A DNA stretch of 64,000 nt, taken from contig CANQNC010000003.1 in assembly GCA_947625145.1 (NCBI GenBank), forward strand, positions 31,754 through 95,753. The letters are read 5' to 3'. Shown here piece by piece: positions 3,572-63,022 of this stretch. How positions within the stretch are numbered: position 1 is the first letter of the stretch; each line of letters begins with the position of its first letter. Both the position numbers and the translations under genes were made by a program. The DNA comes from an uncultured Clostridia bacterium. Lineage in GTDB: Bacteria; Bacillota; Clostridia; Christensenellales; CAG-917. Below the pieces are notes generated by a model. It was not told the DNA's origin, did no database searches, and saw nothing but the letters and a program-made list of their open reading frames with translations.

Positions 3572-3697
3572 ATCCTCATCCTCCCAAGCAAAATTTTCCT
3601 CGTTTTTGTATCCGTTTTTGTATTGTTGCGTATTTGTTCGATTTGTTGCGTATTTTTTGGTTCACAGCCTTTCAAGGCTTTTCAAGAGGCGTATCCC

Positions 3698-5344
3698 TCA
3701 TCTTTTCACGATCCCGAACCCGTTTCTCAGCACAAGCCACAGCGCGTCGTCCATCAGCTGATAGTCGTACTTTATGACGTCCGTTTCCGCCTCGGTCTTG
3801 CCAAGCCACTCCGCTTTAAGCCGCCTGTAAGTCAAAAGCCCGTCGTAGGTGGTCAGGTTTGCGTGCTTGCGTTCTTTCAGCATTTCCGCCTTGCTTTTGA
3901 GCCTGATATCCTCGATTGACGCGGGAACAAACCCCATGCTCATCATGTAGGCGTTCCACCTGTCGTGCTCCTGCATCGCGAGGATGTTCCGCACCGTCCC
4001 TCGGCGGAAGAGGCAATCGCCGTAATCCACGACGCCCTTGCCGTTAATCATCTCTCCCGTGTACACGATCTCGTCCCCCGCCGCATACGCTCTCGAAAAC
4101 TCCTCGCGTGCGTCGAGGTCGCCCTCTCCTCTTACAAGGTCTAAGCCCATCAGCTGAAACTTCATCTTGAGGCTCAGACACGCATAGACGTTGGAGTCTC
4201 TCTGCGCCTGTTTAGAGGCGCCGTACCAATCCGCGATCGCCTTGCGGAAAAGGGATATCTCCTCGTCCCTGTTCTTCGGCGCCCCCGAATATTCGAGGGA
4301 ATAGCAGAAGTGTCTGTCCTTTGCCATCAGCTCGAAGGAGGAGTTCACGATCCTGTCGAAGCAAAAGCTCTCGTCCTCGAAGCCGAAGCCTATGACCTCG
4401 CCGCATTCTCCCCTCTTCTTCTGCCTTGCAAACACATGGACGTTGCCCTTGCCCTTAAACCTCTTCGCCAGTTCGGAAGCGACGGACAAGTTTTCCTCGT
4501 CCTCGCCCATGTCCACAACGATCATGCAATATCCGCCCAAATCGAGCGCGTCGAGGCTGTTTATATATATCTCCTCCGAGGGCATATCGGGCAGGGGAAG
4601 ATACTCGTCTTTGTGCGCGACAAGCTCGCCGTACATGGCGTTGTAGCGCAAAAAGTATTCCGAATTTGCGCCTTTTTCAGAATGGTTTTTGTCGTATATC
4701 CAATATTTTATGGTCTTTTCCCGCACTTCGCCGTCCACAAGCGTCATAAGCTGACTGTTTGCCACAAGCGCAAGATACAGCTCCTTTTGCCTCTCGCCGA
4801 AGCCCACAAGAGCCACATTTATGTCCGCGTCCTGCCTGACGGTCGCGGTGGAGACGTCAAGCTCTCTCTCCCCCATAAACTCGGTTATGGGATAATTTGC
4901 GATGAAGTCCATGGCGGCAAGCCTAGGCGCGTCTATGGCGTGCAACCTGCCCCCCGTCGCCTCCACAAAAGGCTCGAGCTCCTCGGTGGAGCCCAAAACG
5001 TAGCAATGCAACCCTCTCGGCTCCCTCAAAGACAAATCGCAAGGTTCGGTCTTTGAAGCGCGCTCGGCAAATCGCCTTGCAAACTCGACGTTCAGCCGTT
5101 TGTCGTCAAACACGACGATCAACCTTGTCAGCCTGTCCGAAACCTGTCCGAACAAGTCGAACATGGCGTCCGCGTCCGTGACGTCGGGCACTTCCACGCC
5201 GTTTGCATGCGGACGCGCGGCGTCGCAAAGCAAGATCGCCTTGCCGCGCGAAGAGGAAGCGACCATGGCGGCGTTTTTGTCGCCGATCACAAGATCGAAG
5301 CCGTTTTTTTCGACATATCTCTTCAAATCTTCCCAATCGGTCAT
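3698..5344 (-). CDS. soluble TrkA-N-like Rossmann protein with a C-terminal RyR-like domain (paralog of 200-3571; function unknown)
   Basis: 548-aa ORF starting at ATG 5344 with a GGAG RBS. The Rossmann-like region reads INVALVGFGERQKELYLAL...YCMIVVDMGEDEENLSVASELA. The segment QAQRDSNVYACLSLKMKFQLMGL parallels SKESNRSASIFAGHLGAV in the neighbouring protein. The C-terminus ILAMQEHDRWNAYMMSMGF...KHANLTTYDGL...DVIKYDYQLMDDALWLVLRNGF is RyR-like with an insertion. Confidence 0.8.
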   Translation of the reverse strand: MTDWEDLKRYVEKNGFDLVIGDKNAAMVASSSRGKAILLCDAARPHANGVEVPDVTDADAMFDLFGQVSDRLTRLIVVFDDKRLNVEFARRFAERASKTEPCDLSLREPRGLHCYVLGSTEELEPFVEATGGRLHAIDAPRLAAMDFIANYPITEFMGERELDVSTATVRQDADINVALVGFGERQKELYLALVANSQLMTLVDGEVREKTIKYWIYDKNHSEKGANSEYFLRYNAMYGELVAHKDEYLPLPDMPSEEIYINSLDALDLGGYCMIVVDMGEDEENLSVASELAKRFKGKGNVHVFARQKKRGECGEVIGFGFEDESFCFDRIVNSSFELMAKDRHFCYSLEYSGAPKNRDEEISLFRKAIADWYGASKQAQRDSNVYACLSLKMKFQLMGLDLVRGEGDLDAREEFSRAYAAGDEIVYTGEMINGKGVVDYGDCLFRRGTVRNILAMQEHDRWNAYMMSMGFVPASIEDIRLKSKAEMLKERKHANLTTYDGLLTYRRLKAEWLGKTEAETDVIKYDYQLMDDALWLVLRNGFGIVKR

Positions 5345-5369
5345 ATCAGACTCCTATCCGCAAAAGGCG

Positions 5370-7523
5370 TTACAACAGCCCCATTGCGCGCACGATATAC
5401 ATGATGATGCTTGCAAGGTTCGCCAATCCGAGGAAGGCTACGCCCACGCGCGTCACATACCTCGTTGCAAAGCACAGCGCGATCGCCGAAGCGAAGCCTA
5501 TCGAGGACAGCATCAGCGCAAGCTCGGTCAGCCCCATCGAATACAGCCCCTGCAAGCAACAGCCCGCCGCCGTCAGTGCCAGAAGCCCCGCCGCCAAGAC
5601 GAATTTTCTGCGAAGTTCGTCGGACAGCAAGCACACGATCGCCCCAAACGCGACGGGACAGATCGCCCCTATCGCAAACTGCCATTGATAAATGGACGCG
5701 TCCATGTCGAAGAGCACAGGCATCGCGATCGCAAACGCGAGATGCGCCGCCGCGAGGACGATATAACTCGTCCCGTCCGCCACGCTGAACTCCTTGACGA
5801 CCATGACGCCCGTCGATATCAAATACACCGCCGTCGCGACGCTCATCGCGCAACCTATGGCGGCATAATCCTCGAGATACACCCCCGTCAGCGCGGCGTT
5901 GGCGACCGTGATCGCAAACGCGGAAGCGACGGAAAACGCCTTGTTGTAATTCAGATAGAACAGCGTGTCTATGCTCTTGAACAGCGTAAATCCAAACGTC
6001 GCGCCCGCCGCGCAAAGCAATTGCGTCTCGCAGGAACGAGCGTCGAACACGTCCAATCCCTCCGCGACCGCAAGCATGACGTTTGCCACCGCAAACAAAA
6101 AGTAGTAAACGAAGTTTTCCCTGTGTCTGTACGCGCGTTTGCACGAAAACGCCGCAAACACAGTCGCCATCACGGCGATACACGTGTGGAAAGGCAGTCC
6201 CGCCCAGCCGAAGTCCTGCCCGAAAGCGTACGCCATAAGCCCCGCAAAGGACAGCCCCGACAGCAACATCATGGTTATGTTGGACGCGTCCTCTTTTGTG
6301 GACGGGGACAGCCGCATGCCGTGCACCGCGGTCAGCAATATGCCGATAGTGATCAAGGACAGCGCAATGCCGAACCCTAGATAGAAGAGGGAACGGTCGC
6401 TCGTACTCGTCACCATAAAAACATACGAAAACAGCAATCCCAAACTTCCGAGAATGAAGAATATGCCCGAAACTCCCACAAGCGGAGACCTTACGACAAA
6501 CGCCTTTATGCTTCCGATCAGCGCGAAAAACGCGACCACGACCGAGCAGGATATGCTGATGGACAACAGGTTTGTTGCCGCCACGTTCACGCTTTCGGAC
6601 TCTTCGCCCGAATTGAACAGACCTATCACCGCGCCTAGGCATATCACCGTAAACGCCGCAAAAACGCTGTTCGCGACGCCGAGTTGCAACGCGCCCACCC
6701 TCTTCTTGCCGAGGAAGAGGATGCACACCGAGATCGCGCTCACCACGTACGCGCAAATTATTGACGAATAGCCGAACGCGGTGACGGGATTTGCGCGATA
6801 CTCCAAGCACCTTATGACAAGCACCGCGGTCAGCGCGCTCAAAATCAGCACGAGCGCGACTATCTTCAAAACGTTCAGTGCCCTGCTCGCCCTGTACGAC
6901 AGAGTGCGGGCGGGACGAGATTCTCTCTCCCCTCTTCTCGACTCCGCGGCGGCGCGGCGATCTTCTCTGCGTTCTCTCGCCCTATCGCGCGCTGCCCTGA
7001 ATTCCGCGCCCCGACCTATCCCCGCTCTTCTCGCTCTCCTTGCAAGCCTGACGGGATGGTGGGCGGGCGCTTCCGAAGCCGCGTATGCGGGCGCCGCAGG
7101 CGTGGACTCCGCGTGTGCGGAAGGGGAAGTTGACGTCGCAGAGGCAGTAGGCGCCGCGGGTATGGGAGCCGAGGATGTCGGTTCAAAGTACGTGGCGGCA
7201 GATGCCGCATATGCGGGCGCGGCGGGAGGCGCTATGGGCGCCGCGGACGGCGGGGCAACGGGAGCCACAGGTTCGGGCTCTTCCTCCGCCGCCATATACT
7301 GTTGCCTTTGCAACGCTCTTGCCTCGTCCGCCTCTCTTTGAGCCTCGGCGCGTCTTGCGATCTCCTCTTCTCTCAGCCTTTCTATCTCGCGAAGCGCGGC
7401 GTCGGATTCGGGCATAAGAGAAAAAGACTCGGAAGCGGACAATCTTTCCCTTCCGCCGCAGACCACGCACACCGAATCGGAATCTCGGTTTTCGTTTCCA
7501 CAATTTCTACAAACCCAAGACAT
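5370..7523 (-). CDS. zinc-ribbon protein with a disordered Ala/Pro/Arg-rich linker and a large polytopic membrane domain (unknown function)
   Basis: 717-aa ORF. The N-terminus MSWVCRNCGNENRDSDSVCVVCG is a CxxC..CxxC zinc ribbon. It is followed by a charged coiled segment (EIERLREEEIARRAEAQREADEARA), a PA-rich low-complexity tract and an Arg-rich tract. About 16 hydrophobic helices then run to the C-terminus. Confidence 0.8.
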   Translation of the reverse strand: MSWVCRNCGNENRDSDSVCVVCGGRERLSASESFSLMPESDAALREIERLREEEIARRAEAQREADEARALQRQQYMAAEEEPEPVAPVAPPSAAPIAPPAAPAYAASAATYFEPTSSAPIPAAPTASATSTSPSAHAESTPAAPAYAASEAPAHHPVRLARRARRAGIGRGAEFRAARDRARERREDRRAAAESRRGERESRPARTLSYRASRALNVLKIVALVLILSALTAVLVIRCLEYRANPVTAFGYSSIICAYVVSAISVCILFLGKKRVGALQLGVANSVFAAFTVICLGAVIGLFNSGEESESVNVAATNLLSISISCSVVVAFFALIGSIKAFVVRSPLVGVSGIFFILGSLGLLFSYVFMVTSTSDRSLFYLGFGIALSLITIGILLTAVHGMRLSPSTKEDASNITMMLLSGLSFAGLMAYAFGQDFGWAGLPFHTCIAVMATVFAAFSCKRAYRHRENFVYYFLFAVANVMLAVAEGLDVFDARSCETQLLCAAGATFGFTLFKSIDTLFYLNYNKAFSVASAFAITVANAALTGVYLEDYAAIGCAMSVATAVYLISTGVMVVKEFSVADGTSYIVLAAAHLAFAIAMPVLFDMDASIYQWQFAIGAICPVAFGAIVCLLSDELRRKFVLAAGLLALTAAGCCLQGLYSMGLTELALMLSSIGFASAIALCFATRYVTRVGVAFLGLANLASIIMYIVRAMGLL

Positions 7524-7708
7524 CTGCCTACCTTCGCTTTTGCAACCGAGCGCAAACGGCCAAACCTGCGCATATTTCCATAGAGTCGCAAATCACTTAT
7601 GCGCATATTCGCACGCGTTCCGCTCTCGGACAAGACGTGCGCACATACGCATATATGGCGCATACGCAAACAAAAACGTATGCTTATATATGCTTATATA
7701 TTCGATTT

Positions 7709-7737
7709 ATTTTACAACACCGCGCCGCCTATGTCAA
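7709..7737 (-). promoter_or_regulatory. sigma-70-type promoter for the Zn-ribbon membrane gene and the two RyR-like genes
   Basis: The minus strand reads TTGACA-17 nt-TAAAAT (tgtcaa at 7732-7737, atttta at 7709-7714). This leaves a leader of about 180 nt before the ATG at 7523. Confidence 0.55.
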
Positions 7738-7811
7738 CAGGCAGGAATACGAAACGGCGGAGTTTTTGTCCGCGCAAAGGCGTTTTCGGTCAAGTTGGGA
7801 GTGTTTTTCGC

Positions 7812-7836
7812 AAAGGAAAAGGCGGCGTACGCCGCC
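7812..7836 (-). terminator. rho-independent terminator after the TerD gene
   Basis: The minus strand reads GGCGGCG-TA-CGCCGCC followed by TTTTCCTTT. It lies 24 nt downstream of the stop at 7860. Confidence 0.7.
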
Positions 7837-7859
7837 CTTCCGACATATTATCTCAAAAC

Positions 7860-8798
7860 TTACAGGCGCTCCGCCTCGTCCGCAAGCGCGCGTATTGTCG
7901 CCGCTCTGCTGCCCTGTCCGACCGCCTTGAAGTCCCAACCCGAGCCGTTTCTGAACGCCTTGCCTATGATGATGCCCCTGTCCGAACTCACGTCGTTTTT
8001 GACATGATATTCAACAAGCACTTGGCGCGTCGTGGGCTCGTAAAGGCGTATGTACATGTTGCGCACGTCGCCCAGAGTTTGCCCCCTCTCGACGGAGGAG
8101 TAAATGTTGATGAGGAAGTAGATCTTGTTGAAAGAGGACGGCACTTTGTCAAGATAGACGTCAATGTTTTCGTCGTCCTGATTTCCGCCCTTGTCCGCGC
8201 CCGTGAGGTTGTCGCCGTGGTGCGTCACGCAGCCGTACTTGCTGTTGAGGTTGCCGAAGTACACGATCTCTTGTTCGGAAGATCCCGACAGCACGACTGT
8301 GGAATCGACGTCCATATTCGAACCCGTGCTTGCGGGGTCCCAGCCCACGCCCACATAGATGCGTTTGAGGTCGCTTCCGTCGGGCAGTTTGATGCTTACA
8401 ACGTCGCCCTGTTCAAGCTGCACGGTGTCCGAAGCTCCGAAGCGGCCCGTCGCGCCTGTGACGGGGATTCGATTTGCGCTTGCCGCGGGCACGTCCGCCG
8501 TCGCTCCGCATGCGGGACATTTGGCGTTGTGGATCGCTCTGCCGTCATAGCATATGAATCTCTTGCACGCGCCGCATTGATACACAAACTTGTTGCCGCA
8601 ATGTTTGCACCCCGTCCTCTTGAAGGAATCCCCGATCACGAGGTTTGGGGCGAGCGCCTCGCTGCTGACCGTCGCGGTCTCTCCCGAGATAGCATAGCTT
8701 CCGCCGAGCGCCGCCTCCGAGCCGTTGATGACAAACTGCATGCCAAGCGGTTTTTTCTTTGTGGAGCACGCGCCGAGTTTGGTGATGATCTTTGACAT
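7860..8798 (-). CDS. TerD-domain protein with an N-terminal Cys-rich (double zinc-knuckle) extension
   Basis: I trimmed the start to ATG 8798, which has a GGAGGT RBS; the track start at 8813 is TTG. The C-terminal half has TerD hallmarks: VGVGWDP...DVDSTVVL...VYFGNL...HHGDNLTGADKGGNQDDENIDVYLDKVP...IYFLINIY. Upstream lies CKHCGNKFVYQCGACKRFICYDGRAIHNAKCPACG. Confidence 0.85.
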   Translation of the reverse strand: MSKIITKLGACSTKKKPLGMQFVINGSEAALGGSYAISGETATVSSEALAPNLVIGDSFKRTGCKHCGNKFVYQCGACKRFICYDGRAIHNAKCPACGATADVPAASANRIPVTGATGRFGASDTVQLEQGDVVSIKLPDGSDLKRIYVGVGWDPASTGSNMDVDSTVVLSGSSEQEIVYFGNLNSKYGCVTHHGDNLTGADKGGNQDDENIDVYLDKVPSSFNKIYFLINIYSSVERGQTLGDVRNMYIRLYEPTTRQVLVEYHVKNDVSSDRGIIIGKAFRNGSGWDFKAVGQGSRAATIRALADEAERL

Positions 8799-8850
8799 AT
8801 TGACCTCCGACAATGTATTTTCTTATTTTATCCTATTAAGGAGCACCGAT

Positions 8851-8879
8851 ATTATAGCACGCCTGTTTTCCTTGCACAA
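8851..8879 (-). promoter_or_regulatory. promoter of the TerD gene
   Basis: The minus strand reads TTGTGC-17 nt-TATAAT (attata at 8851-8856, gcacaa at 8874-8879), about 50 nt upstream of the ATG at 8798. Confidence 0.55.
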
Positions 8880-9125
8880 GGGCGGTTTCAAAAAATTTTT
8901 GTCCTCTCCGCACGCATTCAGAAATCAAAAACCATTCCAAAATTCGCCGATTTTTATAATAGTATTCAAAAAATCATTACAATTTGTAATACTTATTAGC
9001 CATATTTTTTGAAATTCTCCGCAAAACCCCACGTCATTCCTCAAAACGCTCCCTCTCAAAAAAAATCACTCTTCATACGCTTTCACTTCAAATCGGCAAG
9101 CCTTTTGCGCCTTTCAAGCGCTCTT

Positions 9126-9158
9126 CAAAAAGGATACGCGCCCGTTTCGGGCGCGTAT
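9126..9158 (-). terminator. rho-independent terminator after the 602-aa acidic protein gene
   Basis: An 11-bp GC-rich stem (ATACGCGCCCG / CGGGCGCGTAT) is followed by CCTTTTT on the minus strand. It starts 5 nt after the stop. Confidence 0.75.
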
Positions 9159-9162
9159 GCCG

Positions 9163-10971
9163 TCAGTTTTTCTTTGCTTTTCTATCCCTTCTTTTGAGGC
9201 GTTTTTCATCCTTGATTTGCACCTGCGGAGTCTCTGTTTGCGGGTCACGGTTTGCCTTACGCAAAGGCTTCAAAGGAAGATGAAGTTTGTCGGGCAAGAG
9301 CTTTGTTTTCTTCACGACGACCACTTCCTGCGAATCCTTGTCGGACGACATATAAAGCGCTGTCTCCCCTATCTCCCATTCCTTTCCGTCGGGATCGAAC
9401 CAATACACTTTTTTGCTGCGACGGCGGAACATGACGCCCACGACCTCTATGCCGTTTTCGTCGTATTCCTCCTCTTCAATCGGTTGAGTTTCCTCTTCCC
9501 CTGCGGGCGCCTCGCTCTCCGTTTCGTTCACAGGCGCCTCGCGCGTCTCGTTTGCTTGCTCTGTCTCGACGACTTGTTCGGGCTCTTGCTCAGGCTCTTG
9601 CTCGGGCTCTTCCTCAAACGCGGGATTTTCTTCCTCGGCTTCAGGCATATCCTCTGCCGTTGCCTCTTCATCAGTCTCGGAAGTCCCCTCTTCCGCAGTC
9701 CCTGCCTCGGACTCCGACTCTTCCTCGGACTCTTCTTTGTCTTCATCCTCGACTGCGAATTCTTCCACCGCGACTTCTTCCGTTTCGTCCTCGGCGACAG
9801 GCTCTCCGACTTCTTCCTCGGTCTTTTCTTCCTCGACCTCGGGTTCGCCGACATCTTCTTCCTCCGCAAATTCTTCTGCGGGGACTTCGTCGGACGCGGA
9901 TTCAACCTCAACTGTTTCTTCCTCAACAGATCCTTCTTCGAAAGGCTCTTCCTCTTCAAAAGCCGCTTCCCCTTCTTCAACGGGAGCGACGGTCTCGTCC
10001 GAGGTCTCCTCTGCAACTTCCGTGACAGTTTTCGTGACAGTTTCTTCGGTGACTTCCGCGGCGGCTTCTTCGGCGATATCTTGCGGAGCCGTATCCTCGC
10101 TCTCCACATATATGCGCTTGATGAGGCCCTTTTCGATAAGCGCCTCGGTATCCTCGTAAGGCAGATAGAAATCTTCCTCCGCACGCTCCTTACGCTCTAT
10201 CCCCCGCGCGCTCATCACTGCGGCGATAAGTTCCGCGGCATATCTCACGCGCCGCTCGTTTTTAAGGCGATACATGCAAGGCGTGTCGGCATAAGTGGAA
10301 TATTCCGAGACGTCCTCGACCTTGTATTTGCTTTCCGCATATGACGCGGGGTCGAGAGGCAGATATATGCACAGCGTGTTGCCGCGATATCTGAAGCGGG
10401 CGACCTTTATCCTGCCCATGCGGAAGGTCTCGCGTTTCCAGCTCATCCGCGCCTTGACCTTTTTGTAGGAGAGGAGTTGGTTTTTGAGCTTTGCGTACCA
10501 CGCTTTGACCTCGTCGCCGGATTGGATGAGTTTGGCGGTGAAGCTCTTGTTGTACAGCACTCCGTCCCCCTCAAACAGCAATGCGGAAGCGGGGACGGTT
10601 ACGATCGGACGTTCCGTCTTTGCTTGCTCCGCTTGCCCCTCGGGCTGTTCGGTTTCCGCTTGCATTTCATGCTCGGCGGGCTGTTCTTGGGCATCATATC
10701 CCGCAGGCTGTTGCTCGACGTCGCTTATCTCCGCTTGCGCCGCCGTCTCTTCCGCTTCGGGCGCTTGTTCCGCAAGCGCTCCGCCCATCCGAGCGGGGAC
10801 TGCGCCGACAGCCTCTCGTCTACGGCGCGAGACCGACACGGCGACGACGATCGTAAGAACAATGGCGGCAAGCGTAAGCACGACCGCGACGATGCAGATC
10901 GCAAACAGGATGATGCCTTCCGTCCCGTTCATAAAAAACGTATTGTCAAAGAAAGATTTGATTGCCGACAT
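9163..10971 (-). CDS. signal-anchored protein with a conserved-looking central domain and a long Glu-rich acidic tract (unknown function)
   Basis: 602-aa ORF starting at ATG 10971. It has an N-terminal TM helix (GIILFAICIVAVVLTLAAIVLTIVVAV). The central region reads YNKSFTAKLIQSGDEVKAWYAKLKNQLLSYKKVKARMSWKRETFRMGRIKVARFRYRGNTLCIYLPLDP...YKVEDVS. An E/T/A-rich tract of about 200 aa follows. The C-terminal beta-like module is VVGVMFRRRSKKVYWFDPDGKEWEIGE. Confidence 0.75.
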   Translation of the reverse strand: MSAIKSFFDNTFFMNGTEGIILFAICIVAVVLTLAAIVLTIVVAVSVSRRRREAVGAVPARMGGALAEQAPEAEETAAQAEISDVEQQPAGYDAQEQPAEHEMQAETEQPEGQAEQAKTERPIVTVPASALLFEGDGVLYNKSFTAKLIQSGDEVKAWYAKLKNQLLSYKKVKARMSWKRETFRMGRIKVARFRYRGNTLCIYLPLDPASYAESKYKVEDVSEYSTYADTPCMYRLKNERRVRYAAELIAAVMSARGIERKERAEEDFYLPYEDTEALIEKGLIKRIYVESEDTAPQDIAEEAAAEVTEETVTKTVTEVAEETSDETVAPVEEGEAAFEEEEPFEEGSVEEETVEVESASDEVPAEEFAEEEDVGEPEVEEEKTEEEVGEPVAEDETEEVAVEEFAVEDEDKEESEEESESEAGTAEEGTSETDEEATAEDMPEAEEENPAFEEEPEQEPEQEPEQVVETEQANETREAPVNETESEAPAGEEETQPIEEEEYDENGIEVVGVMFRRRSKKVYWFDPDGKEWEIGETALYMSSDKDSQEVVVVKKTKLLPDKLHLPLKPLRKANRDPQTETPQVQIKDEKRLKRRDRKAKKN

Positions 10972-12046
10972 ATTTTACCTCATCTTCGAGTTTCTTTTTT
11001 TTCTTTAAGACGACCGCAAGCGCGATCAGGATCAAGACGTCCGCAAACAGGACGCCCGTCGCGATGATGATGACGGAGAAGTAGGACGTGTACGTGCTTG
11101 TAAACACATACGCCGAAAGCCCGTCCGCCACAAAGATGACATAATCTCCGTCTCGGGTATACTCGACGCTCGCGGACCTTGCCACCGTCATAAGTTCGAA
11201 ATCCTTGCTTCTGAACTCTTCGGGAATGAGGAGCCGCACGGTCACCTTTCCGTCGATCTGGACTTCCACGCCGTCCTTGCACATTTTCACGACAAATTTT
11301 TCGGACACTTGGTCCTTCCCCCACGCCAAGTATGTACGCTCGACGCCCTCTATCTTTTCCACAACAAGCTCGAGGGTCGGGTCGAAGCCTTCCTCGCTTT
11401 CGATGAATACATCGGACTCCTTTTCCTCGGAAGAGGGTTCGACCTGCGTCTGCGTACGCAAAATGGTGAGGGTTGCGGTCATTTGGGCGAACACGCCGTC
11501 GGGGTCGCGGAACATCGCCGTCACGGTGTAGATGGAGGGATCCGTCTGTCCGTTCCCCTCGTACGTCACGGTCACATTGGTGGGCAGCTCCCCGTTTATC
11601 AAAACGTCGTGCGCCTCGCCGTCATACTTCACGGTCATATCCTCAAACAGTATCCCGCTCAGATCGTGGCTCACTTCCAAGATCTCCAACGTCGCCTCTT
11701 TGCTCGGAATAAGATTGTGGTTCAGCTCGTCTCCCTTGAAGTTCGCCGTTACGGTATACCTTCCGGGCGTCTTCTTCCCGTTCCCGTCGTAGGTCACGGT
11801 CACGCCGTACGGCAGATCCCCCTCAATGTACAAGTTGTGCTCTTCCGCGTCGTAGGTGAGCGTAAGATCGTCAAAAGTCACCCCGCTCATGTCGTAATCT
11901 GCTTTCAAAATCGCAAACTCGACCGTAAGATCGACGGTTTCGCTGTCCTTCCACTTGAAGTTTTTGCTTGCCGCTTCGGTCAACGTTATCTTCACGGAAT
12001 AGACCGCCGTCGACCGCAACCGCACAATGTCGCTCAGCGGAGCCAT
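10946..12046 (-). CDS. MBG/YDG-repeat surface protein with a C-terminal TM anchor; start uncertain, probably 5'-truncated
   Basis: Two clear repeats are present: MSGVTFDDLTLTYDAEEHNLYIEGDLPYGVTVTYDGNGKKTPGRYTVTANF and LSGILFEDMTVKYDGEAHDVLINGELPTNVTVTYEGNGQTDPSIYTVTAMF. The C-terminus is VIIIATGVLFADVLILIALAVVLKKKKK. The track ORF N-terminus (12047-12442) is antisense to the TM region of the histidine kinase and looks spurious. The first in-frame ATG is 12046, with no SD and no signal peptide. Confidence 0.55.
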   Translation of the reverse strand: MAPLSDIVRLRSTAVYSVKITLTEAASKNFKWKDSETVDLTVEFAILKADYDMSGVTFDDLTLTYDAEEHNLYIEGDLPYGVTVTYDGNGKKTPGRYTVTANFKGDELNHNLIPSKEATLEILEVSHDLSGILFEDMTVKYDGEAHDVLINGELPTNVTVTYEGNGQTDPSIYTVTAMFRDPDGVFAQMTATLTILRTQTQVEPSSEEKESDVFIESEEGFDPTLELVVEKIEGVERTYLAWGKDQVSEKFVVKMCKDGVEVQIDGKVTVRLLIPEEFRSKDFELMTVARSASVEYTRDGDYVIFVADGLSAYVFTSTYTSYFSVIIIATGVLFADVLILIALAVVLKKKKKLEDEVKYVGNQIFL

Positions 12047-13340
12047 AATCGGCGCGGTTACGTTTTTGCTGTTTATCCTGATATGCGTCCTCAAACGCTC
12101 CCTCTCCTTCGTCCCGCAATTGCTGTTTGCCGCGGGGATATTTTTGGCGATGTTTTCCACGTATATGCTGTTCGGTTTCACCACCGTTCCGTACTTCCTG
12201 CTTGCCATACGCCGCTTTTCGGCGGGCTTCCTTATCTTCGCTTCCTCGCTGTATCTCCCCAAAAAGGCAGGCAAGGTCCCCGTTTTGTACCCCACAAGCG
12301 CCGCCACGATCGTCGCGACCATCTTGGCGTTTATCTCTCCGTTTTGCACCACCGTCGCCGCGCACGCCGCGGTCTGCATGACGTATATCGTCTTGGCGTT
12401 TGCCTGCGTCATAGTCGTCTTTGCGTTCACTTTGCGCGACATCTACAAAAACAAGCCGCTTGGCCTCAGGCTGACCACCGTCATCATAGGCGTTTCCACC
12501 GTCATGGCGCTGTTTGCCACGCATCCCATCCCCTTCACCATGCTCTCTCCCGCGTTTTGGCTGTATTTCGTCGAACTCTGCGTCACCCTTGTGCTCGGCC
12601 TCAGAGAGTTCATCACCGCGGAAAGGCACAATCGCTATCTCACCGCAAACCTCGAGCAGGAGGTCTCCCGCCAAACGCAAAGTTTGCAGGACGTCATCGC
12701 CGAACGCGACAACATCTTGCTGTACGTCAGCCATGACATGAAAAAGACCGTATCCTCTATGGGCGACGCCTTGACCGACTTGCGCCAAGAGCTCTCCGCC
12801 CCCGAAGCGGTGGAAAAAGTGGACCGCCTGCTGCAAAAGACAGCGGACCTCAAAAAAGATTTCGCGGACCTAGGCAAGTACAACAAGCAAAACTACGTCG
12901 CCGAACAGTCCGAAGAGGTCAACGTCAGTCGCATTGTGCAAAGCGTGACCGACGACCTCCGCCCCGACTGCGAGGCAAACGGCATCGTCTTGACCGTCAC
13001 CGTGCCCGAAACCTTGAACGTGTACGCCAAAAAAGTCGCCTTGGAAAGCGTCATCTTCAATCTGGTCATGAACGCGATCGAGCACTCGTTCTGCTCGCAT
13101 CTGTCCGTGATCGCCGCAAAACGCAAGGGCTTCTGCCGCCTCGACGTCATAGACGACGGTCAGGGCGTCAACACCGACAAAAACGTCTTTGCTCCCTTCG
13201 TTTCGGGCAGTTCCTCGGAAGGCAATTCGGGCCTCGGACTGTTCTTGGCAAAAAACGCAATCGAAACCATGCACGGCCAATTGACCTACGAGCGCAAGAG
13301 CGATCTGACCATATTCACCGCCACCCTTCCCCTCTCCTAA
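12027..13340 (+). CDS. sensor histidine kinase with a 7-TM N-terminal domain (no response regulator adjacent)
   Basis: 437 aa with seven hydrophobic helices. The H-box is LLYVSHDMKKTVSSM, the N-box is FNLVMNAIEHS, G1 is VIDDGQGV and G2 is NSGLGLFLAKNAIE. No SD precedes the ATG at 12027, so the start is uncertain. Confidence 0.8.
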   Translation: MSLSGAIIGAVTFLLFILICVLKRSLSFVPQLLFAAGIFLAMFSTYMLFGFTTVPYFLLAIRRFSAGFLIFASSLYLPKKAGKVPVLYPTSAATIVATILAFISPFCTTVAAHAAVCMTYIVLAFACVIVVFAFTLRDIYKNKPLGLRLTTVIIGVSTVMALFATHPIPFTMLSPAFWLYFVELCVTLVLGLREFITAERHNRYLTANLEQEVSRQTQSLQDVIAERDNILLYVSHDMKKTVSSMGDALTDLRQELSAPEAVEKVDRLLQKTADLKKDFADLGKYNKQNYVAEQSEEVNVSRIVQSVTDDLRPDCEANGIVLTVTVPETLNVYAKKVALESVIFNLVMNAIEHSFCSHLSVIAAKRKGFCRLDVIDDGQGVNTDKNVFAPFVSGSSSEGNSGLGLFLAKNAIETMHGQLTYERKSDLTIFTATLPLS

Positions 13341-13562
13341 ATTCAAAAATATTGCCTCCGCAATCTCCGCCGCGCTCTTTCTCTCTCTTGTTTTCATATA
13401 TCCGCTTGCCTCAGCAAGCTCCGCCAACGATTTTTCTCTCTCTTTTTCAAAAATCCGCTTGCCTCAGCATGCTCTCACACAGCGGCACGCGCCCTTCCTC
13501 TCTCCCGACTTCAACGCCCGCTCTCCTGTTTCAAAAATATCCTCTTAAACATCATAATACGC

Positions 13563-16229: not shown

Positions 16230-17477
16230 TCAAAGCGTTGCGTAAACTTTTTTCAGCTTGGCAAATCTCGGCAATCCCTCCTCAAGAGGCGCCTTTGCGT
16301 CCCCTTGGATCAGAGGCAACGCATACTTGATGAATTCGTCGCTGACGTATGACCCGTCGTTGGTTATCCACTCAAGAGGAACTTTCTTTTCGGTGTTGGC
16401 GGCAAGTTCGAGGGGCATCAGCACGTTTTTGCAGACGTAGTTGCCGTCCTTGTCGTACGCCCTTTCGAAAATGACCATCTTGTCCGTCTCGCCCTCGCAC
16501 GCGCACTTGACGGCGAACGCCCCCGCATTGAAGGCTTCCTCGACGTCCGTCTTTGAGGCGAGGTGCGCGCCGCAGCGTTGCATGAGGCTGAGCTCGATGG
16601 GCCTGACCTTCACTCCGAGCCTTGTCTTGACTAGGTTTGCAAGCACTTGCGCAAGCCCGCCTAGCTGAGCGTGTCCGAAGCTGTCGTTTGCGGACGCTTC
16701 CGCCTCCGCGACATACTTCCCTTCGAGGTTTTTGATGCCCTCGGACACCGCGACAATGCACTTGTTGTCGTTTTTCTCGCACACGTTTTTGACTGCGGCG
16801 AGGAACTTTTCGGTGTCAAACGGGACCTCGGGAAGATAGATGAGGTCCGCCCCCAAGCCCTTGTAGCCCGCCAAAGCCGCGGCGGCTGTCAGCCAGCCCG
16901 CGTTGCGCCCCATGATCTCCATGATGCACACGCAGCCGAAGTTGTAGACCTTTGCGTCGAGGTTGCACTCCATGATGGTGTTTGCGATATACTTTGCCGC
17001 GCTTGCGTACCCCGGGCAATGGTCGGTGCCGTAAAGGTCGTTGTCAATGGTTTTGGGCACGCCTATGACGTTGCACTCATACCCCACGGATTGCAGATAT
17101 TTGCTGATCTTGTTGCAGGTGTCCATGCTGTCGTTGCCGCCGTTGTAGAAGAAATAGCGGATGTTGTACTTTTCAAACACCTCGAGGATGCGCCTGTAGT
17201 CCGAATCGTCCACGCTTGCGTCCTTAAGTTTGTATCTCGCCGAGCCGAGCGCCGAGGACGGCGTATACTTCAACAACTCTATCTCCTTGGGATCTTCCTT
17301 GGAAATGTCGAAGAATTTTTCGTTGAGGATACCCACGATCCCGTGCTCCGCGCCGTAGACCGCCGTAATATTGCCCTGCTTGAGCGCCTCGGTGAAAACG
17401 CCTGCCGCGCTGCTGTTGATGACGGAAGTCGGACCGCCCGACTGCCCGAACATGCATGCTCCCTTCAAATTTTTCAT
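16230..17477 (-). CDS. pfp: long-form phosphofructokinase, probably PPi-dependent (diphosphate--fructose-6-phosphate 1-phosphotransferase)
   Basis: 415 aa with FGQSGGPTSVINSS, NGGNDSMDT and VIGVPKTIDND. The Lys is where ATP-PFKs carry Gly. Confidence 0.75.
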   Translation of the reverse strand: MKNLKGACMFGQSGGPTSVINSSAAGVFTEALKQGNITAVYGAEHGIVGILNEKFFDISKEDPKEIELLKYTPSSALGSARYKLKDASVDDSDYRRILEVFEKYNIRYFFYNGGNDSMDTCNKISKYLQSVGYECNVIGVPKTIDNDLYGTDHCPGYASAAKYIANTIMECNLDAKVYNFGCVCIMEIMGRNAGWLTAAAALAGYKGLGADLIYLPEVPFDTEKFLAAVKNVCEKNDNKCIVAVSEGIKNLEGKYVAEAEASANDSFGHAQLGGLAQVLANLVKTRLGVKVRPIELSLMQRCGAHLASKTDVEEAFNAGAFAVKCACEGETDKMVIFERAYDKDGNYVCKNVLMPLELAANTEKKVPLEWITNDGSYVSDEFIKYALPLIQGDAKAPLEEGLPRFAKLKKVYATL

Positions 17478-17947
17478 TTCAAACTCCTTTTGCCGCCCGA
17501 CGGCATATATGTCTTAAAATATGATAATATATTTTCACTCAAAATACAAGCGTAAATATTTCCTTTTGCACAATCTTCCCCCTTGAAAGCATTTCACGTT
17601 TCGCCAAAAGCCGAAAAACGCCCATACAAGCGCTCCACCTTTGATGATGACCCGAGTTTTTCCCATGAAAACGCTGCATGTTTTAATGGGGACCCCCATA
17701 GAAGCACTCGCCCAAGCTATCATATTATGAATAGGGCTGTTGACGCAGTATTTCGCTCAACAGCGCGAGTGGATAGGACATGATGACAACGCAAAGCATT
17801 ATAAAGACGTGTAAAACCGCAATATTGAGATGAGTGACAAGGAAGCGCCCCCTGAACGACAAGCCCAATCCCACCCCATGAAAACGCTACGCATTTTGAT
17901 GGGGACCCCGAGAAAATCCCCGTACAAACTATTGTGTTATGATAACT

Positions 17948-18273
17948 CTTGACACAGCTATTCGCCAAATAGCGCGGCAAGAGGACTTGATGTCCACGAA
18001 AAATAAGATAGAGAAAGGTAAAACCGCGATATTTGGATGCTAGGCTAGGAAACAGCCCTCTCCCGAGGCGCCTAGTGTACATGGCGTACACGACGGCGAG
18101 GACAAGCCCCCTTGACACAGCTATTCGCCAAATAGCGCGGCAAGAGGACTTGATGTCCACGAAAAATAAGATAGAGAAAGGTAAAACCGCGATATTTGGA
18201 TGCTAGGCTAGGAAACAGCCCTCTCCCGAGGCGCCTAGTGTACATGGCGTACACGACGGCGAGGGAGAGGGCT
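17948..18273. repeat. tandem duplication with a 163-bp period, two copies
   Basis: By eye, 17948-18101 and 18111-18264 are identical. The copies diverge only in the last ~10 nt. Confidence 0.85.
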
Positions 18274-18309
18274 GTTGACAACGCATAGCGCCAAATAGCG
18301 CGGTTTTAC
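18181..18309. repeat. complete 129-bp repeat element with 19-bp terminal inverted repeats (copy E1)
   Basis: The left end gtaaaaccgcgatatttgg (18181-18199) and right end ccaaatagcgcggttttac (18291-18309) are complementary in 18 of 19 positions. The internal hairpin spans 18216-18274 (CAGCCCTCTCCC...GGGAGAGGGCTG). Confidence 0.8.
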
Positions 18310-19289
18310 TTGCTGATGACGATGGCAAGATCATACAACTTCTGATCAAACTCCTTCGGCAAGGACAGCGCCTCCGCCACGGTGGTGTCGTAGATATCGC
18401 CGCCGCGGACGCCGACGACTCTGCCCGACTGACCGCACTGAATGAGGTCAACGGCGCGCTGAGCCATGCGGGAGGCGAGGACGCGATCGGACATGGTGGG
18501 ATTGCCGCCGCGTTGCATATAGCCAAGCGCCATATGGTTTACGCGGCGATTGGTTTCCGCCGCCACTTTTTGCAAAAGCTCGTCCTTCAAATAGTTTTTG
18601 CCCTCGGCGAGCAAGATGATGGTGGACGTCTTGCCCTTGTCGAAGCCGCGCTTCACGCTTTTTGCGATCTCGTCCACGTCCGCGGGGGCTTCGGGGACGA
18701 TGACATATTCCGCGCCGCCCGCCACGGCAGAGTTGAGCGCGATGTTGCCGCTCATCCTGCCCATGACCTCGAGGATCATGATGCGGTCGTGAGAAGTGAT
18801 GGTGTCGCGCAGTTTCAAGATGGCGTCTATGACGGTGTTGCAAGCGGTGTCGAAGCCTATGGTGTAGTCCGTATAGCCCATGTCGTTGTCAATGGTGCCG
18901 GGGATGCCGATGACGTTCAGTTCGGTGAAATCGTGAATGTCCTGCACTCCCCTGAACGAGCCGTCGCCGCCTATGACTATCAAATTTTCTATGCCTCTGT
19001 TGAGGAGGTTGTCCACCGCCTTTTTCATGACTTCCTTGTCCTTGAACTCGGGGCAACGGGAAGTGCGCAGAATGGTGCCGCCCGCGTGCACGCAGTTGGA
19101 CACGGAGGAATAGGGCATGGGGATTATCTCATCGCGGACGAGCCCGGAATAGCCGTGGCGCACGCCGTACATTTCAAAGCCCTGCGCCATGCCGTAGCGC
19201 ACGACTGTCCTGATGCACGCATTCATGCCCGAGGCGTCTCCGCCCGAGGTGAGCACTGCCAATTTGTTGTTTTTCAAAGTCTTTGCCAT
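18306..19289 (-). CDS. pfkA: ATP-dependent 6-phosphofructokinase
   Basis: I trimmed the start to ATG 19289 (MAKTLKNNKLAVLTSGGDASGMNA), which has a GGAG RBS. Motifs are VIGGDGSFRG, GIPGTIDND and MGR. The stop TAA at 18306-18308 lies inside the repeat terminus. Confidence 0.9.
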   Translation of the reverse strand: MAKTLKNNKLAVLTSGGDASGMNACIRTVVRYGMAQGFEMYGVRHGYSGLVRDEIIPMPYSSVSNCVHAGGTILRTSRCPEFKDKEVMKKAVDNLLNRGIENLIVIGGDGSFRGVQDIHDFTELNVIGIPGTIDNDMGYTDYTIGFDTACNTVIDAILKLRDTITSHDRIMILEVMGRMSGNIALNSAVAGGAEYVIVPEAPADVDEIAKSVKRGFDKGKTSTIILLAEGKNYLKDELLQKVAAETNRRVNHMALGYMQRGGNPTMSDRVLASRMAQRAVDLIQCGQSGRVVGVRGGDIYDTTVAEALSLPKEFDQKLYDLAIVISK

Positions 19290-62758: not shown

Positions 62759-62893
62759 AATCTTCACCTTTTCCCAAAACCCCGCCTCCGCCGAACCCTG
62801 TCTCAGCAGAACCCCGCCTCAGCCGACTTTTGGATATCCCCATTGCGCCTCATGCGCCTGTGCACATGCATACGCAATATTATACTTAATATT

Positions 62894-62923
62894 ATTTTAC
62901 TATCCCCATTTCCATTCTGTCAA
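62894..62923 (-). promoter_or_regulatory. promoter of the giant surface-protein gene
   Basis: The minus strand reads TTGACA-18 nt-TAAAAT, about 135 nt upstream of the ATG at 62758. Confidence 0.5.
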
Positions 62924-63022
62924 TACCCATTTCTCCTTTTAATAATTTTAACCTTATCCCCCCGCGCTTCCCGCTTTCTTCTTCCCCTCGCTTTTCGTTT
63001 CCCGCCCAGCTTTCCAACTTCT

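Follow-up and report, generated by a model that had tools for sequence, protein, structure and literature searches.

Christensenellaceae-like bacteria are prominent in the human gut flora and are known mainly through metagenome assemblies. Among the small repeats described in other bacteria, ERIC elements influence, through their orientation, how stable the upstream mRNA is, and RNase III cuts the hairpins of Correia elements. REP sequences are imperfect palindromes of 20-40 nt with a GTAG or CGTC tag, two of which in inverted orientation make up a REPIN, and they are mobilised by RAYT. The GTAG-tagged kind is found no more than 20 bp from the 3' end of an upstream ORF, whose TAG stop codon is often provided by the REP terminus (PMC3733652).

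Here we analyse a stretch of 64,000 nucleotides from an uncultured Clostridia bacterium (the window, to which all positions refer). It carries a hairpin-forming repeat array that belongs to an unnamed family, with units of about 128 nt, of Christensenella-like gut Clostridia. A full-text literature search found no description of the element, and the family is apparently undescribed so far. Identity with a known RNA family was rejected, as Rfam returned nothing at gathering score for the whole window and only noise at E values up to 10 for 17400-18400, and no tRNA or tmRNA was found. We consider it likely, if by no means assured, that the repeat is a non-autonomous REP/MITE-like element whose hairpin works at the 3' ends of genes, probably as terminator or stabiliser.

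Anatomy of the two arrays

Cluster 1 consists of four repeat units within 17650-18309; its features and those of cluster 2, including the neighbouring genes, are assigned to the - strand. The gene-proximal unit (18181-18309) is complete, at 129 nt. Read on the - strand it opens G-TAA-AACCGCG. This TAA (18308-18306), which falls within the terminus of the repeat, serves as stop codon for the upstream gene, encoding an ATP-dependent 6-phosphofructokinase (PFK) of 327 aa (18306-19289; Pfam PF00365, E = 1e-101). Over 99% of its length the PFK is 100% identical to the 327-aa protein P0001. With the covariance model R1, whose reference orientation is the window's + strand, the unit scores 128.1 bits (+) and 55.2 bits (-). 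As the original prediction had it, the unit is an imperfect palindrome with terminal inverted repeats of 19 nt (18181-18199 and 18291-18309, 95% complementary) and an inner hairpin, of which the helix AACAGCCCTCTCCC / GGGAGAGGGCTGTT is 100% complementary and the GTGTAC-ATGGC-GTACAC tip is present in the minimum-free-energy fold. As RNA it folds at -78.2 kcal/mol (+) and -74.6 kcal/mol (-), compared with means of about -36 to -38 kcal/mol for shuffled versions (z = -10.4 and -11.3; 0/200 shuffles as stable), and as DNA at a z of about -9.6.

Next to this unit is a 40-nt spacer (18141-18180; CAAGAGGACTTGATGTCCACGAAAAATAAGATAGAGAAAG on the + strand) with 62-68% identity to three other 40-nt spacers of both arrays, followed by a second unit (18018-18140; R1 73.5 bits, 86.8% identity to 18181-18309) that lacks the gene-proximal TAAAA terminus and has a partly disrupted inner helix, and by an identical copy of the spacer (17978-18017). 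Both of these CAAGAGG.. spacers lie inside a 163-nt tandem duplication (17948-18264; 1.9 copies, 100% identity). A long-variant unit of 167 nt comes next (17811-17977; R1 22.6 bits, E = 0.002; 78% identity to 63113-63277), which keeps the conserved GATG..AAGGAA and TTGACA..CGC motifs; its interior differs and is branched, with a CCCCATGAAAAC..TTTTGATGGGG hairpin in the fold, and its outer arms are mutually unmatched. Beyond a 40-nt spacer of the TGGATAGG.. type (17771-17810), which has 62-75% identity to the CAAGAGG.. spacers and 75% identity to the spacer at 63073-63112, lies the most distal remnant of a long-variant unit (17650-17770), which was recognised through the repeat families D3 and D4, has no R1 match, retains the CCCATGAAAAC hairpin and the TTGACGCAGTATTTCGCTCAACAGCGCGAG arm, and is missing the GTAAAACCG arm. 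The upstream copies that had been described as ending at ..GCGG and as joined by 40-nt linkers are therefore real, with units from 18018 and 17811, and so is a second inner-hairpin type, CCCATGAAAACGC..TTTT(A/G)ATGGGG, of which two copies (17662-17703 and 17875-17916) share 81% identity. With up to 3 mismatches allowed, GTAAAACCGCGATATTTGG occurs five times in the window, against 0.03 expected.

A second array of the same family, also correctly foreseen, is found at about 63020-63581. Its complete gene-proximal unit (63453-63581, 129 nt; R1 129.7 bits, fold z -11 to -15) contains the stop codon of mnmA, the TAA at 63580-63578; this tRNA 2-thiouridylase gene (63578-64000; Pfam PF20258 and PF20259) is represented by its 3' part, being truncated by the end of the window. 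The unit resembles 18181-18309 in length and architecture, with an identity of only 69% because of compensatory changes in the helices, and the gene-proximal units of both clusters are 129-nt imperfect palindromes with RNA folds of -69 to -78 kcal/mol (z -10 to -15). A 40-nt spacer, assigned by spacer comparison (63413-63452), separates it from a second unit (63288-63412; R1 106.2 bits) that belongs to the subtype of 18181-18309, with which it has 89.9% identity. The spacer on the other side of this unit has just 10 nt and leads to a long-variant unit (63113-63277; R1 19.6 bits, 78% identity to 17811-17977). The distal end (63020-63112) is debris, read from the sequence and from spacer identity as the solitary arms ..CCAAATAGCGCGG and TTGACAACGCATAGCGCCAAACAGTGCGG and then a 40-nt spacer. 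A promoter-like site for a 3656-aa ORF, identified by consensus match only (62894-62923; TTGACA-18-TAAAAT, 11/12), would place cluster 2 between the stop codon of one gene and the promoter of the next.

In the sense of the upstream gene, a unit begins with the conserved (G)TAAAACCGCG terminus, continues with a variable helix of 7-8 bp, a conserved asymmetric internal loop with the sides GCGAATAACTTTGTCA and TTCCTTGTTCTTCATC, and a hypervariable helix of 11-14 bp with a conserved GTAC-loop-GTAC tip, and closes with the terminus CGCGGTTTTA(C). Units are 127-130 nt long, have no conserved ORF inside, and conserve the termini GTAAAACCG / CGGTTTTAC, which form the 19-nt inverted repeat of the window copy. 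The helices are maintained by compensation: 31/44 base pairs have changed on both sides and 93.9% of cells are paired, values that 0/500 shuffles matched, while slid controls were 34-45% paired. Outside two fixed positions, mismatches of the G-U type and of the A-C type are equally common (38 and 35), as is expected if copies drift after insertion but copying requires the hairpin, and unit decay looks neutral. At these two, R1 columns 21-192 and 60-152, a fixed G.T would become an A.C mismatch in the sense RNA, which hints that the strand opposite the sense may be the relevant one; both strands of the unit fold equally well. The idea that the variable helices are spacer-like copies of other sequence was rejected, as they have no 13-mer in common with the rest of the window.

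The spacers of the window invite another interpretation, in which the arrays are read on the + strand as small peptide or small-RNA genes, each spacer providing a ribosome-binding site and an ATG for an ORF of 11-17 codons that ends in the next unit. Indeed, all four spacer types of the window (five spacers) have AGGA or GAGG followed by an in-frame ATG, and the ORFs stop at GGATGA or GGATGCTAG. However, the equivalent spacers of other genomes have neither an ATG nor any similarity, 47 of 59 arrays are single units with no spacer at all, the unit at 63288 has only its 10-nt spacer, the supposed C-terminal codons covary as a helix with no conservation of amino acids, and consensus scans call no + strand promoter-like site within the arrays. 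Given that they are not conserved in other genomes, we reject spacer peptides as the purpose of the family and find the interpretation as a whole scarcely credible.

Units at the ends of genes

The family extends far beyond the window. The covariance model found about 140 units in about 100 fetched loci; 39 strong ones came from the window together with the genome loci, and metagenome loci added about 95. Scanning genomes gave about 20 true loci, spread over 10 or more MAGs or genomes of gut Clostridia, and scanning metagenomes gave 105 stretches, mostly from gut. Besides gut metagenomes, the sources comprise uncultured gut Clostridia (Christensenella sp. nC33, with the complete genome CP091723.1 of 1.65 Mb, CAG:475, RUG767 and Ca. 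Limadaptatus). Plasmids, phages and IMG/VR viral contigs were searched for the family and gave no match. The original prediction had allowed for a local duplication artefact, should the element occur at two loci only and show no covariation; with this number of copies and the compensatory changes in most of its pairs, neither holds.

What unites these loci is their position relative to genes. In 59 of the 69 evaluable arrays, a long ORF (100 codons or more) had its end between -25 and +6 nt relative to the R1 3' terminus; at the other terminus this was so in 2 of 57. The stop codon was within the terminus in 21/32 arrays in one count and 30/53 in another, the remaining arrays being mostly variants in the length of the A-run, with one case of TGA-AACCGC. 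The usual stop is the TAA of (G)TAAAACCGCG, and it is the upstream gene's own. The upstream genes are unrelated to each other (PFK, mnmA, groEL, an ABC transporter and a LOR-family gene are examples), and the non-coding, multi-copy units have no recurrent neighbouring gene. Because each array begins precisely at a stop codon, many ordinary genes have a repeat as their 3' end, among them 2 of about 36 genes in the window and, in a prevalent species, groEL, whose protein P0129 is encoded on at least 422 contigs. The polarity and the start at the stop codon were absent from the original description.

The hairpin starts 0-2 nt past the stop codon, in the order A-run, GC-rich stem and T-run. Given this start and layout, the hairpin must be transcribed as the beginning of the 3' UTR and, given the fixed polarity, the units of the window must be transcribed on its - strand. 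A reading of the units as free-standing RNAs of the + strand is therefore not upheld, as they begin a 3' UTR on the opposite strand and keep a fixed polarity to the upstream gene. We propose that the hairpin most likely serves as the 3'-end structure of the gene, as something akin to an intrinsic terminator, as a block to 3' exonucleases, or as both, a role that would parallel the proposals made for REP and ERIC elements.

The stem base of the units is CCGCG/CGCGG and their T-run mostly has 4-5 T; ordinary terminators of the window genome end alike, for example GCGCTTTTACTTTTTTG after the ORF at 16230. Scans with promoter and terminator consensus sequences did not call the units terminators and found nothing above shuffle expectation. 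A classical terminator follows some arrays (for example at locus L013), and a canonical terminator-like site was present within 200 nt downstream of 15/63 arrays and of 50/171 unit-free gene ends, which is no difference and does not bear either way on whether the units replace ordinary terminators.

Gain, loss and possible mobility

PFK orthologues with about 90% identity have the same C-terminus (..VISK) and no unit downstream, and 64 kb of sequence from these relatives contained no strong R1 match. Whole related lineages are without the family. At one site, different strains carry 130, 275, 312 or 401 nt of units (1-3 units), and at this variable site the new unit type adjoins the stop codon. 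Subtypes are common to both loci of the window (90% identity) and are found across genomes (84.5% identity between the window and locus L037). The best R1 score belonged to the gene-proximal unit in 17 of 19 independent arrays. The groEL unit is kept in 10/10 strains, and the DNA distal to it is a non-homologous mosaic between strains. Contig breaks occur inside units, as they do in other repeats.

Based on these observations, we propose that new units join an array at the stop-codon side, and that older units would be pushed distally, lose the TAAAA terminus and decay. Unequal recombination among units would reshuffle the arrays, the exact 163-nt duplication of the window probably being one such event.

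Persistence at orthologous sites could also mean a function at the level of the locus, with compensation in place rather than turnover. The repeat would then be a vertically inherited, cis-regulatory 3'-UTR RNA under compensatory evolution, and not mobile. One gene carries a unit in three species (76-100% protein identity) in which the helices differ and are still complementary, every difference being compensated, and such an RNA would also account for the fixation after groEL and for the conserved internal loops and tip. Against it, the upstream genes are functionally unrelated, near-identical subtypes recur behind different genes and across genomes, the number of units varies by strain, a new subtype can precede an old one, relatives do without the family, and in the sense strand G-U mismatches are not in excess over A-C. 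For these reasons we regard a purely vertical origin as very unlikely.

Alternatively, the units may be MITE-like DNA that is purely selfish and does nothing for the host. Their position at stop codons would reflect a target preference, for TA or for TAA with an A-run, and an insertion that regenerates the TAA stop would be harmless. The balance of G-U-type and A-C-type mismatches (38 to 35) is that of neutral decay, distal units decay, related lineages do well without the family, and contigs break in the units as in other repeats. However, a target that is palindromic at its termini does not explain a polarity of 59/69 against 2/57, and the gene-proximal unit stays intact, being fixed in all ten strains after groEL. 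A TA..TA reading is possible (TA|AAACC..GGTTT|TA), but the bases outside it are not those of an insertion into a stop codon: a TA duplication there should give TTTTAA or TTTTAG, and the distal junction mostly reads TTTTAC. When flanks were joined by BLAST at all loci, sites differed in the number of units and none with near-identical flanks was empty, so that neither the boundaries of the element nor a target-site duplication could be defined. We think it unlikely that the units are selfish DNA alone, and continue to favour a repeat that acts as a 3'-end hairpin.

That no transposase, RAYT or integrase gene lies in the window, as originally stated, agrees with our Pfam scans: the 35 ORFs gave housekeeping families only and no transposase or integrase match, a negative that is incomplete as 16 of the 35 had no Pfam match at all. 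An all-against-all comparison of 158 ORFs near units found no recurrent family. Among the loci covered, no insertion sequence with the same ends was found, every true match to the terminus pattern being a hairpin unit, and approximate queries for RAYT and IS608 TnpA, run by tblastn on 1.2 Mb of loci, gave one spurious match (E = 0.05), which was to non-coding DNA. The assignment to a MITE/REPIN-type element stands in part. It is right as to the general class, a multi-copy, non-coding, interspersed hairpin repeat with conserved inverted termini and very strong covariation that occurs in many genomes and is absent from close relatives. The traits that define a MITE or a REPIN were not seen: no target-site duplication, insertion sequence with matching ends or RAYT was found in this material, and the arms are not REP-like palindromes.

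A further possibility is that the units are recombination sites that act as single-stranded DNA, of the attC or CTX-phage attP kind, for a site-specific recombinase, with units and distal variable modules added serially beside the stop codon like cassettes at attI. Many features are attC-like: termini of the ..AAC / GTT.. form, variable sequence on a conserved structure, asymmetric bulges, a length of 127-130 nt, a place directly after an ORF and a fixed polarity. In addition, the newest and best-preserved unit adjoins the gene, the DNA distal to the groEL unit is mosaic and non-homologous between strains, and the fold suggested by the two fixed G.T positions is that of the ORF's complementary strand. 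However, the termini fit RYYYAAC / GTTRRRY at 5/7 positions each, internal units lack one terminus that integron recombination would keep, there are no ORF cassettes between units, core genes flank the units at many loci, and no integrase was found in the window or near units. Taken together, these points make a recombination site of this kind decidedly improbable.

Quite unlikely, too, is a reading in which the units are substrates of an undescribed hairpin-dependent, strand-specific integration system. It would target translation stop codons, or the end of a unit already in place, with polar arrays as the result. The enzyme might be of the tyrosine, serine or HUH type and encoded elsewhere in the genome. 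If true, this would be a chromosomal analogue of attC x attI capture that brings mobile 3' ends, as terminator modules, to core genes. The strict polarity, the new units beside the stop codon and the distal decay gradient are compatible with it. The fixed asymmetric mismatches and the hypervariable mosaic distal to the groEL unit are compatible with it as well, and for none of these observations is there another explanation so far.

Significance and comparison with known systems

The repeat supplies the 3' end, including the stop codon, for a noticeable share of the genes of these bacteria. It breaks assemblies, and neither Rfam nor terminator predictors see it. As its copy number varies between strains, it could serve as a typing marker. 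Furthermore, the strict polarity and the gradient along the arrays make it a tractable system for questions on the mode of copying and on a role as terminator.

Like MITEs, the units are shorter than about 300 bp, non-coding and multi-copy, with terminal inverted repeats and presence or absence between related genomes. They share with intrinsic terminators the A-run, the GC-rich stem base (CCGCG/CGCGG) and the T-run immediately past the stop codon, but differ in a stem-loop of about 120 nt, compared with 15-40, a T-run of usually 4-5 nt, and a repeated, modular and asymmetric build. With integron attC sites, likewise imperfect palindromes, which measure up to about 140 nt and come right after an ORF, they share ..AAC/GTT.. 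termini, variable sequence on a conserved structure, fixed polarity and arrays. In contrast to attC, their ends GTAAAAC and GTTTTAC match the core sites RYYYAAC (R'') and GTTRRRY (R') at 5/7 each, the units abut each other or short spacers, no cassette ORFs or integrase were seen, and they are scattered behind core genes.

Other parallels are found among interspersed repeats. The bcr1 element of the Bacillus cereus group similarly has a Firmicutes host, a length of about 130-155 nt, an interspersed, non-coding nature and a compensated fold, but it has TTTAT direct repeats at its ends, no known anchoring at stop codons and no sequence similarity to our family. The 127-bp ERIC/IRU elements and the Correia/NEMIS elements of Neisseria resemble our units in being imperfect palindromes of about 105-155 bp with conserved inverted termini, in lying in transcribed intergenic regions where they are co-transcribed with their neighbours, and in encoding no transposase. 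They have no sequence similarity to our units and occur in both orientations and at variable distance from genes, and Correia elements duplicate a TA target, whereas here the polarity is fixed and the terminus coincides with the stop codon. REPs and REPINs resemble our units as well: both are non-coding, extragenic hairpins close to the 3' ends of upstream ORFs, in clusters or arrays, and for both a role in termination or mRNA stabilisation has been proposed. The tetranucleotide at the terminus gives a stop codon in either case, GTAG yielding TAG in REPs (PMC3733652) and GTAA yielding TAA here. However, the arms of our units are not self-complementary, the whole forming one 128-nt hairpin in which the internal loops are conserved and two helices are variable, the tag is GTAA, the hosts are Clostridia, the polarity to the gene is strict and the searched loci showed no RAYT. 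The family adds a long, modular form, from Clostridia, to the gene-end palindromic repeats of the REP/ERIC type.

Two arrays of a hairpin-forming unit

The interval 17478-18305 is flanked by two - strand phosphofructokinase (PFK) genes, 18306-19289 and 16230-17477, which are tandem paralogues of 327 and 415 aa, and the spacer between these paralogues consists entirely of a repeat array, bar the promoter region of the second gene. In order of position on the + strand, the array comprises a truncated unit (17650-17770), a 40-nt spacer (17771-17810), a long-variant unit of 167 nt (17811-17977), a further 40-nt spacer (17978-18017), a unit without its last six bases (18018-18140), a repeat of the preceding 40-nt spacer (18141-18180) and a complete unit of 129 nt (18181-18309); an exact 163-nt tandem duplication spans 17948-18264. 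The original prediction described this array correctly in every detail: the 40-nt linkers joining the upstream copies and the second hairpin type are present as stated, the 19-nt inverted termini of the complete unit show 95% complementarity, and its inner hairpin is a perfect 14-bp helix with a GTGTAC/GTACAC tip. Fold energies of the complete unit are -78 kcal/mol for the + strand and -75 kcal/mol for the - strand, with z of about -10 to -11, and DNA parameters give an equally good fold. The terminus motif is present five times in the window, where chance predicts 0.03.

Another array built to the same plan occupies about 63020-63581, with 40-nt spacers at 63073-63112 and 63413-63452; the mnmA 3' end is on one side of it and a promoter-like site for a 3656-aa ORF on the other. 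Its gene-proximal unit (63453-63581) matches 18181-18309 exactly in length and fold, yet identity is only 69% because the changes are paired in every helix. The subtype common to both window arrays shows 90% identity, and that common to the window and a rabbit-gut MAG 84.5%. The 3656-aa ORF (51797-62767, - strand), whose promoter-like site is just distal to the array, is probably a giant surface protein; its sole Pfam match is a YDG domain at residues 2734-2810.

The spacers at 17771-17810, 17978-18017, 18141-18180, 63073-63112 and 63413-63452 carry, on the + strand, AGGA or GAGG together with an in-frame ATG, opening ORFs of 11-17 codons that extend into the next unit and stop at GGATGA or GGATGCTAG (for example, MSTKNKIEKGKTAIFGC*). 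We rejected these small ORFs as the purpose of the family, since the corresponding spacers in other genomes do not preserve them. Elsewhere in the window, 200-13427 holds seven - strand ORFs of 185-1123 aa without a Pfam match at E <= 1e-5, which represent either unannotated protein families or true genes in other frames, and a 53-nt tandem repeat (13352-13474; 2.3 copies, 84% match) overlaps the ends of two predicted ORFs.

We describe the unit in the orientation of R1, our covariance model, which is that of the window + strand. The 5' terminus, GTAAAACCG(C/T)(G/C), is followed by a variable arm of 7-8 nt, a conserved segment (GATGAAGAACAAGGAA, or GATGCTAGGCTAGGAA in the window's main subtype), a hypervariable arm of 11-14 nt with a short second helix, and a tip of RYGTAC, a 5-6-nt loop and GTACRY; the return side consists of complementary arms broken by (T)TGACAAAGTTATTCGC and closes with the 3' terminus, CGCGGTTTTA(C). 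The termini, GATG, C.AGGAA, both GTACs, TGAC and CGC are invariant. Since R1 scores one strand of each unit about 60-80 bits above the other, the palindrome has a definite polarity. The units are non-coding, and their variable helices have no match elsewhere in the window.

Distribution and covariation of the family

Scanning a species-representative genome collection with a pattern based on conserved sequence in the 5' part of the unit gave 37 loci, about 20 with true units, all of these from uncultured gut Clostridia: BRZ_LA bin1, UMGS1688, two rabbit-gut MAGs, RUG767 (seven loci), Ca. Limadaptatus stercoravium, RGIG4097, Firmicutes bacterium CAG:475, a Hadza MAG and Christensenella sp. nC33. 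The rest are chance matches, as expected from an 18-base pattern. A metagenome scan returned 105 stretches, mostly from human or animal gut, with about 95 additional units. A local duplication artefact, which the original prediction had allowed for if the element occurred at only two loci, without covariation or a transcript, is contradicted by units in many gut Clostridia genomes and metagenomes. The unit had no match in Rfam, nor among PLSDB plasmids, GenBank phages or IMG/VR. The family is real, widespread and apparently undescribed.

The consensus fold of a 20-unit alignment has 44 pairs, 26 with compensatory changes, and R1, built from this alignment, detects 39 strong units in the window and genome-scan loci. 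When these 39 units were aligned, 93.9% of cells were paired and the covariation asked about at the outset was evident, with compensatory changes on both sides in 31 of the 44 pairs; none of 500 shuffled controls reached the observed values, and moving the partner strand by 1-3 columns reduced pairing to 34-45%.

Continuous RNA-level selection on one strand should leave G-U-type mismatches far above A-C-type ones. With two fixed positions excluded, the two types are equally frequent (38 and 35), as expected from neutral drift in inserted copies. Given such drift, full compensation of the differences that separate subtypes implies that the hairpin is needed at copying, or in the small number of copies from which new ones arise. 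The fixed positions, columns 21-192 (T.G) and columns 60-152 (G.T, G-C or A-T, never A.C), both read as wobble pairs on the gene's complementary strand and so may point to that strand; this is a hint only, because the tip has just three sequence types, perhaps a few inherited variants.

Anchoring at stop codons and turnover of units

The link of the family to stop codons is unusually strict. The R1 3' terminus of each window array overlaps the stop codon of the convergent gene by exactly four bases; in gene sense the array begins as ...G TAA AACCGCG..., and such overlap is also found in most other loci. For 21 of 32 arrays across the window and genome loci, the terminal T(A/G)A is where the longest ORF leading into the array stops; in 7 more this ORF stops 3-19 nt upstream, three of these inside a TAAAACCGC remnant of an older unit. 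Among the evaluable, non-redundant metagenome arrays, the stop codon lies within the terminus in 30 of 53, and about 10 others differ only in A-run length (e.g. TAAAAAACCG, TGAAAAACCG, GAATAAACGC). An ORF of at least 100 codons ends -25 to +6 nt from the R1 3' terminus in 59 of 69 arrays, whereas by the same criterion only 2 of 57 do so at the 5' terminus. One unit (locus L031:6534-6660) exactly fills the gap between two convergent genes and gives both stop codons. The genes upstream of units are functionally unrelated (PFK, mnmA, groEL, an ABC transporter and a LOR-family protein). The window PFK ends in ..VISK, as do its orthologues; therefore, the unit starts precisely at the stop codon and leaves the protein unaltered.

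Comparisons between genomes indicate that units are gained, lost and exchanged. Presence of the family depends on the lineage: PFK orthologues about 90% identical, in a conserved uvrC-murB-whiA-dnaE-pfk neighbourhood, have ordinary downstream regions, and 64 kb of sequence from these relatives gave no strong R1 match. Flank-joining BLAST across the fetched loci recovered no exact empty site, that is, near-identical flanks without a unit. Downstream of a LOR-family gene in one prevalent gut species, the array measures 130, 275, 312 or 401 nt depending on the sample, between flanks that share 97-100% identity. Where two units are present, the one next to the stop codon is of a different subtype from the older unit behind it; the other states are explained by recombination between homologous arms. 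Arrays of three to four units with 40-nt spacers, as in the window, are the elaborate end of a range in which 47 of 59 arrays are single-unit. Where several units are present, the gene-proximal one has the top R1 score in 17 of 19 independent cases (mean of 110 bits, against 65 for the second unit). Together with the two-unit state, this gradient suggests that arrays grow from the stop codon outwards, new units being added there and older ones decaying distally.

In each of three species, one shared gene (protein identity 100, 80 and 76%) carries a unit at the stop codon; the helix sequences differ with complementarity kept, which would reflect replacement or compensation. A unit follows groEL in 10 of 10 strains, and beyond it come 500-1100 nt of mosaic sequence without homology between strains, marking a hypervariable intergenic hotspot. 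The mosaics, in the groEL-PRK intergenic region of one species (L147-L156, ~4246-5366; ten strains with identical GroEL), are composed of short hairpin modules and unit fragments.

Downstream of at least three different genes, a 19-nt fragment, TAAAACCGCACCAAATCGCGCC, which is the start of one unit subtype, supplies the stop codon and is followed by a full unit of a different subtype (L018:5062-5090, L011:6113-6140, L033:7707-7720, and the same motif in L088 and L106); this suggests that composite fragments are copied along with units. A second short family, TTTTAC-ATGTA..GGGGCTYCTCGCCCCGC.CCCTCGGCAAAGGGCG, forms two small hairpins directly at stop codons in gene sense (L038:10984-11060 and ~11150-11198; L013:1404-1470; L040:10987-11040). 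It occurs in relatives without the 128-nt units, where the orthologous PFK stop codon in L038 reads TAA-TTTTAC, and elsewhere just distal to such units, as in L016, distal to the array at 2219-2474. All six contigs encoding protein P0244 (L157-L162) end 25-71 nt past the gene, five of them at 63-71 nt, inside the unit; the repeat is therefore a systematic metagenome assembly breakpoint.

Proposed role and relation to known repeats

The units sit in ordinary housekeeping neighbourhoods. As the original prediction had noted, no window ORF scanned has a transposase or integrase Pfam match, including those near the units. The autonomous partner it proposed to look for did not emerge: comparison of ORFs near units revealed no recurrent accompanying gene, and tblastn of the fetched loci with approximate query sequences found no RAYT.

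As the hairpin begins 0-2 nt past the stop codon, it must be transcribed along with the gene. Its frame of A-run, CCGCG...CGCGG and T-run resembles that of an intrinsic terminator, ordinary terminators of the window genome have similar GCGCTTTTAC-type tails, and both window arrays appear to have a stop codon on one side and the promoter region of the following gene on the other. The T-run is short, mostly 4-5 T, and consensus scans did not call the units as terminators; canonical terminators downstream did not differ between genes with and without units, a test that is uninformative. Based on the transcribed hairpin, the terminator-like frame and the stop-to-promoter position, we favour a dual nature like that of REP and ERIC, a self-propagating repeat that may also serve as a gene 3'-end hairpin. 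The repeat would spread by hairpin-dependent copying and would be tolerated, or retained, as the 3'-end hairpin of the gene, acting in termination, protection from 3'-exonucleases, or both. Should copying prove to be a new hairpin-directed integration system, the family would be of greater interest.

The MITE/REPIN-type assignment of the original prediction was roughly right as to general class; it was incomplete, and its specifics are unproven. The closest precedent is the GTAG-tagged REP superfamily. According to Di Nocera et al. (2013, PMC3733652), these repeats lie within 20 bp of upstream ORF 3' ends, their GTAG termini often provide a TAG stop codon, and they are believed to function as RNA. 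Where the GTAG of these REPs gives TAG, the GTAA of the unit gives TAA. However, the arms of the unit are not the 20-40-nt palindromes of the REP definition. The unit is similar in size and shape to ERIC and Correia elements, and in architecture and polarity to attC sites, but lacks defining features of each. For this reason, we file it as a new family of a known kind: it belongs among the interspersed gene-end palindromic repeats, outside any named family.
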